IMG/VR virus record: IMGVR_UViG_3300048833_000741
Location: 1-30,493 of that record
Length of the DNA stretch: 30,493 bases
From: a virus
Taxonomy: Duplodnaviria; Caudoviricetes
Direction: 5' to 3' (one strand)
Positions within the stretch are counted from its first letter, which is position 1, and the number at the start of each line of letters is the position of its first letter. A model generated the notes under the pieces. That model worked only from the letters and a program-made list of their open reading frames with translations. It had not been told where the DNA came from and did no database searches. A program made the position numbers and the translations under genes. This document shows, one piece after another, positions 2,254 to 16,753 of the stretch.

Positions 2254-2793
2254 ATGGCTGCGACGACTCTGATCCCCAAATCCGACTGCGCAAGGTTTGA
2301 ATTGCAGCCCGTCACCAGTTCAAGCCACCGCTGCATCCTCGCCCTCGATCTGGGCACCACAACCGGCTGGGCCCTGCGCGGCCACGACGGTCTGATCACC
2401 AGCGGTACAGCGAGCTTCCGCCCCGGCCGCTTCGACGGCGGCGGCATGCGCTATCTGCGCTTCACCAACTGGCTGGGAGAACTGGACCGGCTGTCCGGTC
2501 CCATCGCCGCCATCTGGTTCGAGGAGGTCCGTCGCCATGTCGCGACCGACGCCGCCCATGTCTATGGCGGCCTCATGGCCACGCTGACCGCATGGGCTGA
2601 ATTGCGGGGCGTGCCTTACGAGGGGGTGCCGGTCGGCACGATCAAGCGCCACGCCACAGGCAAGGGCAATGCCGACAAGGATGCGATGATCGCCGCCGCC
2701 CGGGCGCGGGGCTTCAGTCCCGCTGACGACAACGAAGCCGATGCCATCGCGCTTCTGCTCTGGGCCATCGCAACGAACGGGGGTGTCGCATGA
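2254..2793 (+). CDS. RuvC-like Holliday junction resolvase (phage type)
   Basis: AGGAG RBS before ATG 2254; ILALDLGTTTGWA, WFEEV, IKRHATGKGNADK and DDNEADAIA match the RuvC acidic motifs. Confidence 0.88.
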   Translation: MAATTLIPKSDCARFELQPVTSSSHRCILALDLGTTTGWALRGHDGLITSGTASFRPGRFDGGGMRYLRFTNWLGELDRLSGPIAAIWFEEVRRHVATDAAHVYGGLMATLTAWAELRGVPYEGVPVGTIKRHATGKGNADKDAMIAAARARGFSPADDNEADAIALLLWAIATNGGVA

Positions 2794-2990
2794 GGTGGCA
2801 TCCCCACGGCTATGGCGGCCAGCGTCGCGACCCCGATCAGGTCAAGCGCGAGGGCTGGCACGAACAGGGCGTGCTGGCGGTGTCTGCCGACGATCAGCGG
2901 CTGACTTGGCCAGAACGCGAACTGGTCCGCCAACTTGGCGAGAAGCTTTACGGGCGACGCCCGATGGGCAAGGAGGTTCGGCATGGCTGA
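2790..2990 (+). CDS. Small hypothetical phage protein (66 aa)
   Basis: ATGA overlap with the upstream stop; overlaps the next gene's RBS and start. Confidence 0.75.
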   Translation: MRWHPHGYGGQRRDPDQVKREGWHEQGVLAVSADDQRLTWPERELVRQLGEKLYGRRPMGKEVRHG

Positions 2991-3363
2991 CCGCATCTGG
3001 ACGGCCGAGTGCGTGGCCGATCATTTCGAGGAGGCGTTCCGCACCCTGCGCAAGCTGCCACCCGTCAAGGCGCAAGGGTTCTTCAACGCCTGGCCGCAGA
3101 TCGTCCGCACCAGTCGCGAGATCGCCGCGATGGAGCCCGAGCCCATGCGGGTCTGGCCATCGGCCGCAGCCATCACCCGGCTGGAGCAGACCTCGGACTG
3201 GGTGCTCTGGATCGAGGAGGCCGAGCGCAAGCTCGTCTGGTCGCGCGCCGCCCGTGTGCCGTGGAAGCAGATCAGCGGTGAGATGGGCTGCGACCGCACC
3301 ACCGCATGGCGGCGCTGGCAGCTGGCGCTGACCAAGATCGCGGCGCGACTGAATGCCAAGTGA
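2983..3363 (+). CDS. DUF6362-like helix-turn-helix protein; candidate late-gene regulator
   Basis: AGGAGG RBS before ATG 2983; C-terminal sigma-region-4-like HTH (ERKLVWSRA..PWKQISGEMGCDRTTAWRRW); last gene before the late control region. Confidence 0.8.
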   Translation: MADRIWTAECVADHFEEAFRTLRKLPPVKAQGFFNAWPQIVRTSREIAAMEPEPMRVWPSAAAITRLEQTSDWVLWIEEAERKLVWSRAARVPWKQISGEMGCDRTTAWRRWQLALTKIAARLNAK

Positions 3364-3370
3364 CTCCAAT

Positions 3371-3431
3371 GTGTTGCAACACTTTTCCCTTCGACATCTG
3401 CAACATGTTCGTGCTATTCCGAAGGCAAGAT
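3371..3431 (+). promoter_or_regulatory. Putative late promoter with operator-like repeats
   Basis: TCGACA (3391-3396), 18-nt spacer, TGn-TATTCC (3412-3420); palindrome GTGTTGCAACAC 3371-3382; TGCAACA direct repeats at 3375 and 3399. Confidence 0.5.
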
Positions 3432-3472
3432 GGGGAGAGTGCGCCGAAGGGTTCGCTCTCCCCTTTGCTTTT
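3432..3472 (+). terminator. Rho-independent terminator
   Basis: GGGGAGAG (3432-3439)/CTCTCCCC (3456-3463) stem followed by TTTGCTTTT. Confidence 0.7.
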
Positions 3473-3497
3473 GGGCGGATGCGGCTGGATTTCGGGT

Positions 3498-3764
3498 TGG
3501 CTTCCGGGGTCCAGAGAGGGTCCAACCGGGGTCCATCCCGCTGATCCACTGATTTCTGGTTCCTTCCTGGCCATATTCGTATGCTGGCGGGCGAAGCGCG
3601 GCACATCGCTAGCGACAGGGCCGGATTTTTGGGAAGCCACCCGGAAGCCAGCACCGCCTGAATTCGCCTGAAACACTGCAAATTCAAACCCTTGAAGCTG
3701 GACACCCCCGGTGGCCACTGGACCCTGCGTGGAGTCCAGTCTGGACCCCAGAGTCCGGAAGCCA
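3498..3764 (+). other. Putative cos packaging site (cosQ/cosN-like core with flanking terminase-binding repeats)
   Basis: GGTTCCT (3558-3564)..TATGCTGGCGGGCGAAGCGCGG..TCGCTA resembles lambda GGGTCCT..TACGGGGCGGCGACCTCGCGG..TCGCTA; GGGTCCA and GGAAGCCA repeats in opposite orientations on the two sides; gpA-family terminase downstream. Confidence 0.65.
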
Positions 3765-3799
3765 GGGGTATCCCCCTTGATCCGAGGAATGACCCGCTG

Positions 3800-5140
3800 A
3801 TGACGCTGAGCTTCGCCCCCGAGCGGATCGAGATGTGGCCGCTGGCCAAGCTCCAGCCCTACGCCCGCAATGCCAAGGCGCATGGGGCGGACCAGGTCGC
3901 GAAGATCGCCGCCAGCATGGCTGAGTTCGGCTGGACCGTGCCCTGCCTCGTCGGAGAGGACGGCGAGTTGATCGCGGGCCATGGCCGGGTCCTGGCCGCC
4001 ACGAAGTTGGGTCTGACCGAAGCGCCGGTGATCGTGCTGGGCCATCTGACCGAGGCGCAGCGCCGGGCCTACCGGATCGCGGACAATAAGCTGACCGAGC
4101 TCGGCACTTGGGACGAGGCGCTGCTGTCGGCGGAACTGAACGACCTGCTGGCCGAGGATTTCGACCTGTCGTTGGTCGGGTTTTCCGATGGCGAACTGGA
4201 CAAGCTGCTGGCCTACGTCGCGGAAGACGACGGTGAAGAAGGTGGCGCCGGGGGCTCCGTGCCGCCGGTGACCATCCCCGAACCGCCACGCAACCCGGCG
4301 TCGCGCACCGGCGATCTTTGGATCCTCGGCGATCACCGGCTCCTTTGCGGCGACAGCACCAGTGCTGCTGATGTGCGCCGCCTGATGAACGGCGAGCGGG
4401 CGATCCTGTTTGCGACCGACCCGCCGTATCTTGTGGACTATGACGGCTCGAACCATCCGACCCGCAACAAGGACTGGTCGGCGTCCTACGGCACGACCTG
4501 GGATGACAGTTCACAGGGGGCCGAGCTTTACGACGGCTTCATCGCGGCTGCCGTTTCGGAAGCCATCGCTGAAAATGCCGCTTGGTATTGCTGGCACGCG
4601 TCACGCCGCCAGGCGATGCTGGAGGCTTGCTGGGAAAAGGCCGGGGCCTTCGTGCATCAGCAGATCATATGGGTGAAGGACCGCGGGGTTCTGACCCGGT
4701 CGCATTACCTGTGGAAGCACGAACCCTGTTTCATGGGCTGGCGTCGTCCGAACCGCCCGCCCAAAGTGGCCGAGGAAACCCTGCCATCGACATGGGCGCT
4801 GCCCAGCTTCGCCAAGGACGAACGGCCCGACCATCCCACGCCGAAGCCGCTCGATGCCTTCGGGATCCCGATGCGCCAGCATGTGGCGCGGGGCGGGCTT
4901 TGCTACGAGCCGTTCTGCGGTTCGGGTTCGCAGATCATGGCGGGCGAGGCCAACGGCCGCCGCGTGTTCGCGATGGAAATCAGCCCGGCCTACATCGATG
5001 TCGCCGTCGAACGCTGGCAGGCCGACACGGGACGCGACGCAATCCTCGACGGCGACGGTCGGACCTTCGCGCAGGCGAAAACCGAGCGGCTGGGGTATGC
5101 TCCGTCCGCGCCTGAAACCGATCCTGAAGTCGCCGCGTGA
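3800..5140 (+). CDS. ParB-like domain fused to an N6-adenine/N4-cytosine DNA methyltransferase (beta class)
   Basis: N-terminal PYARNAKAH..FGWTVP..LIAGHGR..YRIADNKL (ParB-like); TDPPY catalytic motif before HPTPKP and EPFCGSGS SAM motif; GAGG upstream of ATG 3800. Confidence 0.93.
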   Translation: MTLSFAPERIEMWPLAKLQPYARNAKAHGADQVAKIAASMAEFGWTVPCLVGEDGELIAGHGRVLAATKLGLTEAPVIVLGHLTEAQRRAYRIADNKLTELGTWDEALLSAELNDLLAEDFDLSLVGFSDGELDKLLAYVAEDDGEEGGAGGSVPPVTIPEPPRNPASRTGDLWILGDHRLLCGDSTSAADVRRLMNGERAILFATDPPYLVDYDGSNHPTRNKDWSASYGTTWDDSSQGAELYDGFIAAAVSEAIAENAAWYCWHASRRQAMLEACWEKAGAFVHQQIIWVKDRGVLTRSHYLWKHEPCFMGWRRPNRPPKVAEETLPSTWALPSFAKDERPDHPTPKPLDAFGIPMRQHVARGGLCYEPFCGSGSQIMAGEANGRRVFAMEISPAYIDVAVERWQADTGRDAILDGDGRTFAQAKTERLGYAPSAPETDPEVAA

Positions 5141-6336
5141 CATGCATGACCTGGCTTTACATCCCTCCGGACGCGCTTCCGGGACCGGAGATGCATCCCT
5201 CTTCGGCCTTTCCCTCTGCTCCGGCGCGGGCGGTCTCGACCTCGGACTCACCATCGCCCTTCCTGGATATCGTGCTGTGGGCCATGTCGAACGAGAAACC
5301 TTCGCCGCAGCCACTCTCGTGGCGCGGATGGAAGACGCGTCCCTGGATCAGGCTGTTGTCTGGGACGACGTTGGAACCTTCGACGGCCGCCCGTGGCGCG
5401 GCGCGGTGGATATCATCACTGCGGGCTATCCGTGCCAGCCATTCTCCGTCGCAGGCCGACGGCTCGGCAGCGAGGATCCACGCCATCTCTGGCCGCATGT
5501 CGCCCGCATCATCGCCGAGGTTGAACCGCCTTTCGTCTTCCTTGAAAATGTCGCCCATCATCTCCGCCTCGGCTTCCCCGAAGTCGCCAGCGGACTGGTC
5601 GGCATGGGCTACCGCCTTGCGGCAGGCCTCTTCACGGCGGCGGAAGTGGGTGCGCCCCACAAGCGCGAACGGCTGTTCATCCTTGCCATTCGTGAAGGGG
5701 ACGACCTGGCCGACCCCGCGCGCCTGCTCTGGCACCCGGTCGAGTGGCGGGAACCGGACGGAACTCCTGCGGCTGTGGCCGACGCCTCGGGCCAGCGCCA
5801 ACGAGAACCGGCAAACGAAGCCGACGCCGTCGCAGGAAGCGGGCCAGCATGGCATGAACCTTGCGACGACGGCAGCCTTATGGCCGACGCCGCAGACCGA
5901 CAGTTTCCGCAGCCGGGGTGGCGAACGGAAGGACGAGAAGGGTCTGGACCGAATGGCGCGCGACTGGCCGACGCCGATGGCAAACGACGGGTGCAAGCCG
6001 AGCGCGGGCAACCGGCGGACTGCGGACCTGACTCATGCGGCCGGAATGTGGATGACGCCGACAGCGCGGGACCACAAGGATGGAGCGACCACATTGGCGA
6101 ACACGCCGGTGAACGGTCTGCTTGGCCGCCAGGTCCTGGCGACGCCGATAGTTGGGAGCAATACCTGCGATGTGCGCCGGACCTTGAACCCGCTGTTCGT
6201 CGAGGCGCTGATGGGCTGGCCCACCGGGTGGACCGGCTTCGCCTCTGTGGCAACGGAGTGGTCCCGCTGGTTGCAGCGCATGCGCTGCGAACTTTGGCGG
6301 CTGAATTGCTGGCCGATGGTTGAGGTAGCGGGATGA
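5137..6336 (+). CDS. Overlapping +1-frame protein: putative methyltransferase beta polypeptide (WPTP repeats + motif IX)
   Basis: 399 sense codons fully overlapping alpha; GTG 5137 overlaps the upstream TGA (alternative ATG 5146); TGA overlaps the downstream ATG 6333; RRTLNPLFVEALMGWPTGWT (6175-6234) is motif-IX-like. True start uncertain. Confidence 0.75.
   Translation: MTCMTWLYIPPDALPGPEMHPSSAFPSAPARAVSTSDSPSPFLDIVLWAMSNEKPSPQPLSWRGWKTRPWIRLLSGTTLEPSTAARGAARWISSLRAIRASHSPSQADGSAARIHAISGRMSPASSPRLNRLSSSLKMSPIISASASPKSPADWSAWATALRQASSRRRKWVRPTSANGCSSLPFVKGTTWPTPRACSGTRSSGGNRTELLRLWPTPRASANENRQTKPTPSQEAGQHGMNLATTAALWPTPQTDSFRSRGGERKDEKGLDRMARDWPTPMANDGCKPSAGNRRTADLTHAAGMWMTPTARDHKDGATTLANTPVNGLLGRQVLATPIVGSNTCDVRRTLNPLFVEALMGWPTGWTGFASVATEWSRWLQRMRCELWRLNCWPMVEVAG
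5142..6323 (+). CDS. C5-cytosine DNA methyltransferase, alpha polypeptide (motifs I-VIII and X, no motif IX)
   Basis: LSLCSGAGG (I), AGYPCQPFS (IV, 5430), FLENV (VI, 5544), PHKRERLFI (VIII, 5655), RLRLCGNGVV (X, ~6249). Confidence 0.92.
   Translation: MHDLALHPSGRASGTGDASLFGLSLCSGAGGLDLGLTIALPGYRAVGHVERETFAAATLVARMEDASLDQAVVWDDVGTFDGRPWRGAVDIITAGYPCQPFSVAGRRLGSEDPRHLWPHVARIIAEVEPPFVFLENVAHHLRLGFPEVASGLVGMGYRLAAGLFTAAEVGAPHKRERLFILAIREGDDLADPARLLWHPVEWREPDGTPAAVADASGQRQREPANEADAVAGSGPAWHEPCDDGSLMADAADRQFPQPGWRTEGREGSGPNGARLADADGKRRVQAERGQPADCGPDSCGRNVDDADSAGPQGWSDHIGEHAGERSAWPPGPGDADSWEQYLRCAPDLEPAVRRGADGLAHRVDRLRLCGNGVVPLVAAHALRTLAAELLADG
5707..6147 (+). repeat. Six degenerate repeat units headed by TGGCCGACGCC (W-P-T-P)
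   Basis: Unit starts 5707, 5776, 5881, 5965, 6049, 6136; spacings 69/105/84/84/87 nt, all multiples of 3. Confidence 0.85.
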
Positions 6337-6566
6337 AGCAGTCGCGCGTCATGTCGCTGGTCGAGTCCCTAGCCAATGTGATCGTGGGCTACGGCGTCGC
6401 CGTCGTCACGCAGATCCTGATCTTCCCGATCTTCGGGCTGCACACGACGCTGGCCCAGAACCTGAAGATGGGCGCGGTGTTCACCGTGGTCAGTATCGCG
6501 CGGTCCTATGTACTGCGGCGGCTGTTCGAGGCAATCCGGGTTAGAGGCTGGAGGTTGCGGTCCTAG
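6333..6566 (+). CDS. Small membrane protein (two predicted TM helices), phage hypothetical
   Basis: GAGG RBS; hydrophobic segments VIVGYGVAVVTQILIFPIFG and MGAVFTVVSIA. Confidence 0.8.
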   Translation: MKQSRVMSLVESLANVIVGYGVAVVTQILIFPIFGLHTTLAQNLKMGAVFTVVSIARSYVLRRLFEAIRVRGWRLRS

Positions 6567-7393
6567 GCGATTGGCACACCACGCTGATTTGCTGCTTGCT
6601 CCAGTCTGGGCCGTGTGAATTCAGACACCGGCGTAACCATGTAGCCATTGGTCAAGTCACCGAGCATAGCTGAACAGGAGACTGGCCCGGCCCGCCACGC
6701 CAGACCGATCAGAGCGCAGAGGGCTGCGTCCAGCTTGTCCTGATCGGCCTTCCGAGGCTGAGAGAGCGCGTGCATACGGTCCGACCAGTCGGCGAGGCCA
6801 CTCACGTCGAAACCCTGTGCGGTAGTTTGGACTACGCGCGTCACGGACCGCCAGTCTTCCAGACGGAATTTCCTCCGGTTTTGCGGGTTGTACTTTGGCG
6901 CGCGTAAACGCTGAGAAAAGGCATCCTCGAACGCGGGGAGAGCAAGCGCCGGAAACACTTCGATCAGAAAATGTCCGGCAGGTGCCGTGCGCGCCTCGAT
7001 AGGATCTTGCGTCGCATTGAGATCCGAAAGGAAAGACCAAACGGGCGAGTCGTCACAGAACATGCCGATCTTGCTACGGTTGGCAGGCTGAACGCCTCCG
7101 CCGACAAATGAAACCAACGACCCGGCAACCTTGTCAACCGGACGACTTCCTGCGGAATTGGGCACGACCGTTGGTTGATCAAGTGCGACGAGGCTCACAG
7201 AAAAATCTTGACGGAGCGATCCGATGAAGGCACGCGCATCTGCAAATGAGACGAGACGAGGTTCATGAAACTCGACTTGGCCACGTTCATCAAACGCGAT
7301 GGCACAGATTGCTCCCGGCGCTTTTGCGGCATCTGTCCACGCTGAGTCGAAACCGAAGATGATCGTGCTGCTTTGCGGGTTCCGGTAATCCAT
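6563..7393 (-). CDS. DUF429-like predicted RNase H-fold nuclease (moron)
   Basis: GGAGG RBS; IFGFDSAW, LVALDQP, LIEVFPA and DKLDAALCA acidic motifs; AT-richer and antisense to the flanking late genes. Confidence 0.8.
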   Translation of the reverse strand: MDYRNPQSSTIIFGFDSAWTDAAKAPGAICAIAFDERGQVEFHEPRLVSFADARAFIGSLRQDFSVSLVALDQPTVVPNSAGSRPVDKVAGSLVSFVGGGVQPANRSKIGMFCDDSPVWSFLSDLNATQDPIEARTAPAGHFLIEVFPALALPAFEDAFSQRLRAPKYNPQNRRKFRLEDWRSVTRVVQTTAQGFDVSGLADWSDRMHALSQPRKADQDKLDAALCALIGLAWRAGPVSCSAMLGDLTNGYMVTPVSEFTRPRLEQAANQRGVPIA

Positions 7394-7443
7394 GTGGTCC
7401 TCCGCAAAGCAGCATAGCCAAAAGGTGCTGCGAATAAAGGCGA

Positions 7444-7959
7444 TTAGTTGGCCAGTCTATACACCCGCCCGCGCCCCTCCACCTTCTCCGAGGTCACCTC
7501 TAGCCCGAGCTTCTTCTTCAGAGCACCGGCCATCGCGCCGCGCACCGTGTGCGACTGCCAGTCCGTCGCTGCCATGATCTCCTCGATTGTGGCGCCGTCC
7601 GGTGCCCGCAACATTTCAATCAGCGCTTCTTGCTTGGTGCCCTTCCGGCGTGGGGAAGATGTGGTGACGTTTTCGGCTGGTGTCGTGGTGGCATCGTGCT
7701 CGGTGATCCCGAGCAGGCTCTGTGCCAGCGGCGTTGCGCGCAGGGTGATCGGGCCGCGCGCCTCGTCGTGCCGCCAGACGGTGTTGAGGTTGGTGGCGAG
7801 GATTTCCTCGATCAGCCCGAGCTTCAGGAGGCTCTTGCAGACATTGCCGACAGCGCCGCCCTTCAGCTTGGCGGTGACGGGAAAGACCGCGCCCTCGTCG
7901 CGCGCGCAGGCCGCCGAAAGGATAAGGGCTTGGGTGTCGGTCAGCTGGATCTGGGTCAT
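7444..7959 (-). CDS. DUF3489 domain protein (winged-HTH-like)
   Basis: TKQEALIEMLRAPDGATIEEIMAATDWQSHTVRGAMAGALKKKLGL..GRVYRL signature; GGAG RBS. Confidence 0.88.
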   Translation of the reverse strand: MTQIQLTDTQALILSAACARDEGAVFPVTAKLKGGAVGNVCKSLLKLGLIEEILATNLNTVWRHDEARGPITLRATPLAQSLLGITEHDATTTPAENVTTSSPRRKGTKQEALIEMLRAPDGATIEEIMAATDWQSHTVRGAMAGALKKKLGLEVTSEKVEGRGRVYRLAN

Positions 7960-16051: not shown

Positions 16052-16753
16052 CTAGGGATTGTCAGGCACGACCGGCGCGGCCCTGCCTGCAAGCTTCTTC
16101 CAATCAGGGTTGTCGATCAGCGTTGATCGGTAGATTTTGATTTTTGAACAACCATCGATCGCCTTGAGCGTGCCCTTTACGGATTCAGCTAGCGGAGCTG
16201 CCAGCCAAGGGCTCAATGTGATGCGCTTTATATGACTGAGGCTGATGGGAACGTCATGGAATGGCTTGGAAACATCGCGGTCGACATACACTGCGCGATA
16301 CTCTGCCTCATCGCCATATGGCCACCTTTTCAGGAAGGGAAGCTGTTCGATATCGACATCGGCCATGCTCTTCGCCTGCTTGAGAAGGGTGTAATTCATG
16401 ACGCCGTGCCGAACACCCCGATCATGGTTGAACGCGCCCAACAACCCGTCTTTGTCGAACTCGATGCAGACACCGTCTGAACCATGCGAAAACACCCTCC
16501 AGTGGTGATAAGTTTCATGGCTCTCAGCAAAGCAGAGTGCCAACACGGAGGCGGCATTCGCTCGCCGCTTGTACTCTGACATGAAGTAGGCGTCATTCCT
16601 GTCATCCCACGTTGAGGGATCGAGGAGCGTGATCTTGCGCTTCTGCAGGAGATGAATAGCTGCGGCCAAATTCGTGTAGCGTCGAAAGGTTGTACTTGTC
16701 ATTCCACCCAACACCCTGCGTTGTTCTGCGATCTTGGAATTTGAGCGCAGCAT
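16052..16753 (-). CDS. DUF2971-like protein (moron; start may be 16702)
   Basis: RRYT..L....W.D.ND, LCF......HW..F....GVCIEF and FLKR..Y..E.EYR pattern; AT-richer and antisense within the tail operon. Confidence 0.75.
   Translation of the reverse strand: MLRSNSKIAEQRRVLGGMTSTTFRRYTNLAAAIHLLQKRKITLLDPSTWDDRNDAYFMSEYKRRANAASVLALCFAESHETYHHWRVFSHGSDGVCIEFDKDGLLGAFNHDRGVRHGVMNYTLLKQAKSMADVDIEQLPFLKRWPYGDEAEYRAVYVDRDVSKPFHDVPISLSHIKRITLSPWLAAPLAESVKGTLKAIDGCSKIKIYRSTLIDNPDWKKLAGRAAPVVPDNP

Follow-up and report, generated by a model that had tools for sequence, protein, structure and literature searches.

A probable phage cytosine-C5 methyltransferase gene with two conserved, fully overlapping frames on one strand

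The dual-frame gene and the motifs of its two frames

The viral record IMGVR_UViG_3300048833_000741 (Duplodnaviria; Caudoviricetes), analysed over its whole length of 30,493 nt and referred to here as the window, is a lambda-type prophage region with a guanine-plus-cytosine (GC) content of about 66%, and it contains a stretch of about 1.2 kb in which two frames of the same strand are open together, at the place where an earlier note on this DNA had reported them. Frame A (5142..6323, plus strand) encodes an alpha-like catalytic chain of 393 residues with motifs I-VIII and X, identified through family PF00145, its structure model and its fold matches; frame B, in the +1 register, is open from a GTG at 5137 to 6336 and would encode, from its ATG at 5146, a beta-like chain of 396 residues (5146..6336, plus strand), recognized through its homologues, its avoidance of stops and the conservation of its start. 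Frame B starts 4 nt after A and runs 13 nt past its end, and the data presented below suggest that both products are parts of a single DNA cytosine-C5 methyltransferase. Close relatives were taken from 160 loci, chosen and confirmed by similarity to A only; 80 of these are viral, selected as the best among 418, and 80 come from genomes, selected likewise among 340. From the 160 loci, 158 genes were extracted, 119 of them unique (window included), 105 full length and 94 below 97% identity (mean 91%).

Motifs I, IV (PC), VI (ENV), VIII and X of a C5 DNA methyltransferase, together with the catalytic-domain fold, reside in A, as had been proposed. The S-adenosylmethionine (SAM)-binding loop of motif I is found at 5208..5246, motif IV with the catalytic Pro-Cys at 5424..5447 (Cys98 at 5433-5435), motifs VI (ENV) to VIII (RxR) at 5544..5678 and motif X (GNGVV) at 6234..6263, all on the plus strand; the motif order of C5 methyltransferases is as described in PMC3404938. 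PF00145 is matched over residues 23-189 (E-value, E, 2e-31), P97, C98 and Q99 are invariant in 72 aligned rows, and the NCBIfam dcm score (92.8) lies below its cut-off of 100.65. The model of A is confident over residues ~21-200 (block predicted local distance difference test, pLDDT, 69-98) and 371-390, and matches M.HaeIII, M.HhaI and DNMT1-type structures over ~170-210 columns (E 1.8e-12 for the M.HaeIII/M.HhaI fold); residues 201-324 have pLDDT values below 50 and are predicted to be disordered. The interval between motifs VIII and X, unconstrained over residues 186-325, is devoid of motif IX, as reported earlier, so that motif IX and the putative recognition region are not in the same chain as the catalytic motifs. 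The earlier description of this interval as featureless does not extend to its last 35 residues, which are conserved and include an A-specific PPGP...W segment (6126..6155, plus strand; W338 fixed in 71/71 distant copies), indicating that frame A is still needed just before the motif IX of B. Ahead of its start, frame A continues without a stop for a further 96 codons (window 4854-5141), beneath the end of the preceding ParB-methyltransferase gene, probably by chance, because database homologues mostly begin at the methionine at 5142.

The N-terminal half of B, previously regarded as featureless beneath the catalytic motifs of A, is conserved, with blocks (MxWLY, then residues 58-89; 5146..5412, plus strand) that overlap motifs I-III of A and are predicted to pack on A. 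Farther downstream, within the VIII-X interval of A, B carries the repeats and the motif-IX-like segment that had been seen there: five WxTP units on the plus strand (5707..6135, with starts at 5707, 5776, 5881, 5965 and 6049), which are candidate recognition modules, and residues 344-363 (6175..6234, plus strand). A degenerate sixth unit begins at 6136, and the starts of the five full units are spaced in multiples of three. The number of WxTP units varies from 1 to 7 across 168 B chains, and a crude sorting of 348 internal units gave 84 types, in which the ends are constant and the cores differ; Tandem Repeats Finder returned no array, the units being diverged except for an 18-nt head. Some relatives are missing precisely unit 3 (84 nt): genes of 1098 nt account for 11 of the 158 close genes, and the nine unique ones examined lack exactly this unit. 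The published TL consensus, as quoted from PMC2413257, has its PT core in common with the WxTP units and differs in the next residue; the strict pattern PT[ILV][TASV] is matched by 19 of 73 B chains. In the interval of A, a word that is TL-like or reads WxTP appears in 2 of 73 loci, as compared with WxTP in 72 of the 73 B chains. A role of the repeats in DNA recognition is likely from their sequence, although the agreement with the published consensus is partial and the label "target-recognition" is therefore an inferred one.

The identification of B rests on a protein family, on an alignment to actinophage enzymes and on the complex model described below. PHROG 1008 ("DNA methyltransferase") matches B at E 1e-17 over profile positions 40-207, with the motif X of A at positions 294-319, and in three actinophage enzymes whose single chain carries both IX and X, it is the interval from VIII to X that aligns with the repeats and motif IX of B (probability 97.4; E 1.5e-11 for the alignment). 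The segment in B is thus likely motif IX on the strength of these homologues and of the complex model, and not through a significant match to canonical enzymes. Hidden Markov models of the C-terminal parts of B gave nothing significant against seven plasmid methyltransferases; in two of these the IX segment of B fell on the expected position, at an E-value of about 2. The MS2 coat protein, the sole match of the B profile among PDB sequences, had weak scores and is taken as chance. The ESM Atlas ranks B with C5 methyltransferase clusters (0.96), a result that was not counted because such scores can also arise when a genuine gene is read in the wrong frame.

Both starts adjoin the upstream stop, as had been noted, in a double start (5137..5148, plus strand) formed by the TGA at 5138-5140, the ATG of A at 5142 and the ATG of B at 5146. 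The start of B is corrected here to the latter codon, which is the most likely one from sequence conservation, since ATGNATG is kept in 158/158 extracted genes (the variable base being C in 152, A in 4, T in 1 and G in 1), and the second residue of A varies among H, N, Y and D whereas the ATG of B is constant. The GTG at 5137 was rejected as the start because in four loci a TGA stands between it and the ATG, directly before the latter, and several loci have no GTG. In 94/94 copies an upstream stop triplet lies close to the ATG of A, its last base being separated from it by a distance of 1, 3 or 4 bases, and a Shine-Dalgarno-like word precedes the ATG of A in 0/94 and that of B in 13/94; the lack of such a word before A, together with the adjoining stop, makes re-initiation or translational coupling likely. 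At the other end, it is the stop of B and not that of A which overlaps the start of the next gene, encoding a DUF7220 protein, through an ATGA at 6333-6336, in agreement with the earlier observation, and the overlap is retained in 88 of the 94 non-redundant copies (ATGA in 82, GTGA in 6).

Constraint on both frames and their occurrence in other phages

Frame A is without internal stops in 159 of the 160 loci, being broken in one (L094), and B is stop-free over its whole span in 151 and intact from its ATG through motif IX in 158. The nine exceptions in B comprise the four loci with a TGA directly before the ATG, three that stop nine codons early after motif IX, and two true breaks (L072, L113); the third (+2) frame is open in none of the 160 loci (mean 9.7 stops). 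The +1 frames of ten other genes of the window contain 6.7-11.9 stops per 390 codons, random synonymous re-coding of protein A keeps B open in 2% of 5000 trials, and across the 94 copies ~193 stops in B are predicted from 4233 codon opportunities and 3 are seen, a count that is not independent since the copies are related. Six single-gene plasmid methyltransferases used as controls, one of them at 63% GC, have motif IX in frame and 10-39 stops in the +1 frame.

The distribution of variation among the 94 copies points in the same direction: it falls on the third codon position of A under motifs I and IV-VIII and shifts to the third position of B over A codons 201-320. The allele-class test considered alleles seen in two or more copies, with the upstream gene (74 copies) as control. 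In the repeat zone, B-silent, A-changing alleles are tolerated in 174 of 307 cases and A-silent, B-changing alleles in 20 of 323; the relation is reversed in the motif IV-VIII zone (25/284 and 117/242, respectively), and the control gene gives 26/600 and 334/487 in the matching classes. Over A41-80, A-silent, B-changing alleles occur in 23 of 91 cases, compared with 334/487 in the control (Fisher p 2e-14), and A326-360 is also doubly constrained (13/83 and 13/84); the Fisher p values overstate certainty since related copies are not independent, although the direction is unambiguous. In the stretches 5262-5412 and 6117-6221, the same bases are thus under constraint in both frames. Single residues illustrate this, W338 of A being TGG in 71/71 distant copies while the overlapping residue of B is A, D, V, T, I or G, with a similar situation at P330, and L71 of B being fixed while residue 72 of A varies among P, V and A with a fixed third base T; invariants forced by the other frame (G358 and A360 of A, G73 of B) were left out of this evidence. 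Stop avoidance among homologues and a regional switch of constraint between the frames, both named in the earlier note as tests of dual coding, are therefore observed, and on sequence comparison the gene is a real, selected, full-length same-strand overlap of two frames.

The layout is not restricted to close relatives. Homologues of B numbered 739 among 8000 candidates scored, and 90 of the 120 listed begin with MxW[LI][YFH] and 102 have the motif IX segment; a B profile built from 81 sequences matched 42,238 50%-clusters at E<=0.001 and 4,955 at <=1e-30, counts that are rough owing to composition bias and gene-caller choices. Two distant B queries retrieved 155 viral loci. Of these, 34 were duplicates, 9 did not show the IX pattern and 5 did not show the catalytic one, and the remaining 107 were scored; having been found through B, these loci show the layout and not its frequency among all phage methyltransferases. 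Motif IX lies in the +1 frame in 97 of them, in the same frame as the first catalytic match in 8 and in the +2 frame in 2. Among the 97, motif X falls in A in 87 and never in B; frame A continues without a stop beyond motif IX in 91, and frame B has no stop as far back as motif I in 88. In L174, L175, L176, L180, L181 and L191, A closes before the position of motif IX and the B segment with IX is present, as in broken copies or assembly errors.

A B-like +1 frame (B profile E 1e-7 or better) is also found in all of 12 annotated phage loci, ten of which were picked among the matches to A and two among those to B; one of the 12 belongs to Paenibacillus phage Xenia, with a GC content of 47%. Motif IX is in B in nine of these loci, and motifs IX and X are in A in three actinophages. 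In the latter (L165, L167 and L172, from Gordonia and Mycobacterium phages), the repeat units are confined to B in L165 and shared between the two frames in L167 and L172, a pattern which suggests that the units move between frames. Annotation lists both frames in one of the 12 loci (PhiXhv-28), only A in nine and only B in two, namely L163:802-1968 (Acidovorax phage Alfacinha3, named cytosine methyltransferase) and L170:1258-1866 (phiKX1, part of B), in both of which the catalytic frame is unannotated. Many phage methyltransferase annotations may thus record half an enzyme. Two further arrangements differ from these. In phage phi1026b (L161:2008-4128), the B frame is stopless and continues in frame into the annotated ParB-like gene, forming an open reading frame (ORF) of 706 codons that reflects either the loss of a stop or a fusion of B with ParB. 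A Bacillus thuringiensis plasmid (L330:1498-2689), which supplied the seventh of the plasmid methyltransferases, carries a phage-like C5 methyltransferase in two annotated pieces (I-VIII and IX-X) and a 165-codon +1 segment that matches the N-half of B.

Predicted complex and interpretation

An A+B complex, predicted in three runs from custom alignments, received a score of 0.87, compared with 0.00 for the highest-scoring of three controls; the score mark applied is reached by 116 of 157 solved pairs and by 2 of 215 mismatched pairs, the runs share at least 66% of their contacts, and the partner pLDDT is at least 53. Residues 355-357 of B (motif IX) touch residues 374-376 of A (motif X) with the lowest expected error in the model, and residues 1-10, 65-96 and 138-162 of B and the last full repeat (300-310) also contact A; the first four repeats are not placed. 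The contacts at 300-310 hint that the last unit may be the only one to read DNA. The model shows a predicted fit of A and B, not binding. The orphan heterodimeric enzyme suggested in the earlier note is supported by this prediction as well as by stop avoidance and constraint switching.

In summary, the explanation favored by these data, with a probability of approximately 0.8, is that two chains from conserved overlapping frames form one orphan phage DNA cytosine-C5 methyltransferase. Chains A and B would be translated separately from the ATGs at 5142 and 5146, A supplying the SAM-binding and catalytic domain and motif X, in agreement with its family and fold matches, and B supplying the motif IX that packs on the motif X of A; the WxTP repeats would likely form the DNA-reading small domain, and the N-terminal helices of B are predicted to clamp onto A. 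Ribosomes ending the upstream ParB-methyltransferase gene may re-initiate at either ATG, in which case both chains would come from one message. The product would place 5-methylcytosine (5mC) on phage DNA near packaging time and blunt host restriction, a role proposed because the gene precedes the terminase genes and no restriction gene is seen.

Several observations weigh against this explanation. Frame B has no significant match in Pfam, NCBIfam, PDB sequences or the seven plasmid methyltransferases, it models poorly alone (pLDDT 54.7, predicted template-modelling score 0.22), and the strict TL pattern is limited to the 19/73 chains mentioned above. In the complex, each chain contributes one half of a fold already known, so that resemblance to solved monomeric enzymes may be enough for it to pass, and the constraint on B under motifs IV-VIII is modest (0.48, compared with 0.69 in the control). 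Ten of the 107 distant loci lie outside the +1 layout, and frame A closes before motif IX in 6 of the 97. Moreover, the three actinophages keep a B-like frame although motif IX is in frame A, so that B may have a role other than supplying IX. This last point, together with the lack of significant similarity of B to canonical small domains, agrees with the idea that B is real but acts as an accessory or regulatory partner of an A that methylates alone, perhaps with low specificity. Such an arrangement is unlikely here, where A has no motif IX and its residues 201-324 are unconstrained and predicted to be disordered, where the WxTP words are in B in nearly all of the 73 loci and hardly ever in A, and where the motif IX of B docks on motif X in the model.

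Frameshifting, by which a single chain would draw on both frames, is less probable still. A single programmed +1 shift, yielding an A-to-B fusion (I-VIII, repeats, IX) that works with full-length A, could be read from the catalytic PCQ motif present, as chimeras, in 11 of the 120 listed B homologues. Nevertheless, the junctions of these chimeras are scattered from ~A130 to A310, all 11 are without motif X and most are one-sequence clusters, as expected of indels or assembly errors; in addition, no slippery heptamer or run of 5 is found in the gene of the window, and the fusion would not need the conserved ATG and N-terminal half of B, all of which makes this reading quite improbable. Two compensating shifts, giving one chain from A (I-VIII), B (repeats, IX) and A (X), would fit the colinearity of the motifs on the DNA, where IX ends at 6234 and X begins. 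One chain cannot use the same bases in both frames, and both are constrained at 5262-5412 and 6117-6221, which favors two chains over frameshifting; nor would such a chain account for the avoidance of stops in those parts of either frame that it skips. This possibility, already rated the lesser one in the earlier note, is very improbable. As for B being a shadow frame, the high GC content of the window, the mean identity of 91% among close copies and the residues forced by the other frame might keep it open and apparently conserved; the stop avoidance, the distant +1 layout, the allele-class constraint, the B-like frame in 12/12 annotated phages and the stops in the +1 frame of the six plasmid controls, one of them GC-rich as well, leave this with next to no likelihood.

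A wider reading may be offered tentatively, and we consider it possible but rather doubtful: B would be a protein overprinted on the catalytic gene that took over a cassette array of short swappable recognition modules, and M.EcoHK31I from Escherichia coli would belong to a phage family of very large size. In such a case, the tolerance of A in the repeat zone would let phages gain, lose and swap units in frame, retuning or broadening the set of methylated cytosines, and related phages would record successive stages of the transfer, from A holding both the repeats and IX, through repeats present in the two frames and then repeats in B while IX is still in A, to B holding all of them. Should the repeats be modular recognition units, they would provide a small, adjustable writer of 5mC as well as a means by which phages counter restriction. 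With two interdependent chains overlapping on the same strand over 1.2 kb, the gene would also be a natural test case for the origin of overlapping genes and the division of constraint between them, and codon-optimised cloning, which would close frame B, could yield false negatives.

Genomic setting and comparison with known systems

The order of genes in this part of the window is AAA protein, RuvC-like gene, ParB-fused N6/N4 methyltransferase, dual-frame gene, DUF7220, DUF3489, terminase, portal, capsid and tail genes. The ParB-fused methyltransferase (3692..5140, plus strand) is the upstream neighbor in 159 of the 160 close loci, and the DUF7220 gene (6333..6566, plus strand), ATGA-coupled to the stop of B, is the downstream neighbor in 154; DUF3489 is near the gene in 139 and the terminase small subunit in 126, with 95 of the 160 loci being 7 kb or longer. 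A DUF429 gene (6563-7393, minus strand) inserted between DUF7220 and DUF3489 against the direction of the genes is present in only 3/160 close loci and is therefore likely recent cargo. A reverse-strand ORF (16052-16753, minus strand, 233 residues), whose only match is a weak one to PHROG 1762, a family of unknown function, lies in a low-GC patch (56%) among the tail genes. No promoter-like or terminator-like sites were found in 2700-7600, and no restriction gene was recognized among the 35 ORFs scanned in the window. Palindromes of 6 bp rich in GC are strongly depleted in the window (both strands counted; GCCGGC, 10 compared with 72 expected; CGATCG, 12 with 71; CCGCGG, 10 with 58; GGCGCC, 18 with 66), which is consistent with restriction-site avoidance; palindrome avoidance in the window did not identify the target of the methyltransferase.

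Close relatives are found in genomes of Rhodobacterales, Hyphomicrobiales and Sphingomonadales. The segment 3600-6700 is identical in one contig of a public run, which may be the window's own source. Metatranscriptome contigs from three studies cover the locus of relatives; they were not counted as expression because strand, level and frame are not shown and RNA libraries can hold DNA. The Paracoccus prophage "ParB-Tls" loci described in PMC6536676 include 21 5-methylcytosine (m5C) methyltransferase genes, reported there as single genes of unconfirmed activity, which have the same position beside a ParB-fused methyltransferase before the terminase; those listed with 1182 and 1098 nt correspond to the two lengths found here, a match of length only, and the word "overlap" is absent from the main text of that paper. 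The Paracoccus genes JCM7686_0772 and JCM7686_2655 were rejected as tested relatives, being 2.1-kb genes with a different N-terminus, so that their relaxed specificity does not transfer. The enzymes treated in PMC3925955 and PMC5537653, as described there, belong to a different methyltransferase family (~700 residues), and the out-of-frame HNH insertion reported in actinophage methylases in PMC11855218 is a different element. No description of this phage family as dual-coding was found among the listings and openings of abstracts in a literature search covering few subscription journals.

The repeat array resembles that of the multispecific C5 methyltransferases of Bacillus phages in that modules follow one another in tandem between motifs VIII and IX, each with constant ends and a core that varies. 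Those enzymes are single chains with longer modules. The units found here differ from theirs in being mostly of 23-41 residues, in the WxTP instead of the PT[ILV] signature and in their location in a second frame, and the last full unit starts 45 residues before motif IX, within the range of 10-50 quoted in PMC2413257. M.AquI (CYCGRG), as described in PMC3404938, also consists of two polypeptides, with part of the variable region and motif IX in the second chain, as in the present case; in M.AquI motif X is in the small chain, unlike the distant +1 loci with motif X in A in 87/97 and in B in 0/97, which indicates that the layout is not of the M.AquI type.

The closest parallel remains M.EcoHK31I from E. 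coli (YGGCCR), whose alpha chain, as described in PMC2836561 and PMC3404938, bears motifs I-VIII, motif X and a predicted recognition domain, and whose beta chain, with motif IX, is encoded in another frame over alpha, both chains being needed. The parallel drawn in the earlier note holds for motifs I-VIII and X in A, for motif IX in the second chain and for the location of that chain wholly in the other frame over the first; furthermore, the N-terminal part of M.EcoHK31I beta is reported to be needed for association, and that of B is predicted to touch A. It does not hold for the recognition domain, which is reported to be in alpha in M.EcoHK31I and would here correspond to the repeat array of B, the interval of A being mostly unconstrained, nor for the size of the second chain, since the M.EcoHK31I beta is smaller and nested whereas B is as long as A and overlaps it over its full length. 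No restriction gene is seen next to the dual-frame gene, and the likeness of B to M.EcoHK31I beta drawn here is one of layout; no EcoHK31I beta record was among the plasmid matches examined. By this comparison, the dual-frame gene is a variant of the M.EcoHK31I layout and not a copy of it. Sequence data thus indicate that a layout proven for one E. coli enzyme recurs in many phages, where it is mostly half-annotated, and what is notable with respect to the known two-chain enzymes is its breadth, the repeat array and the intermediate layouts in other phages.

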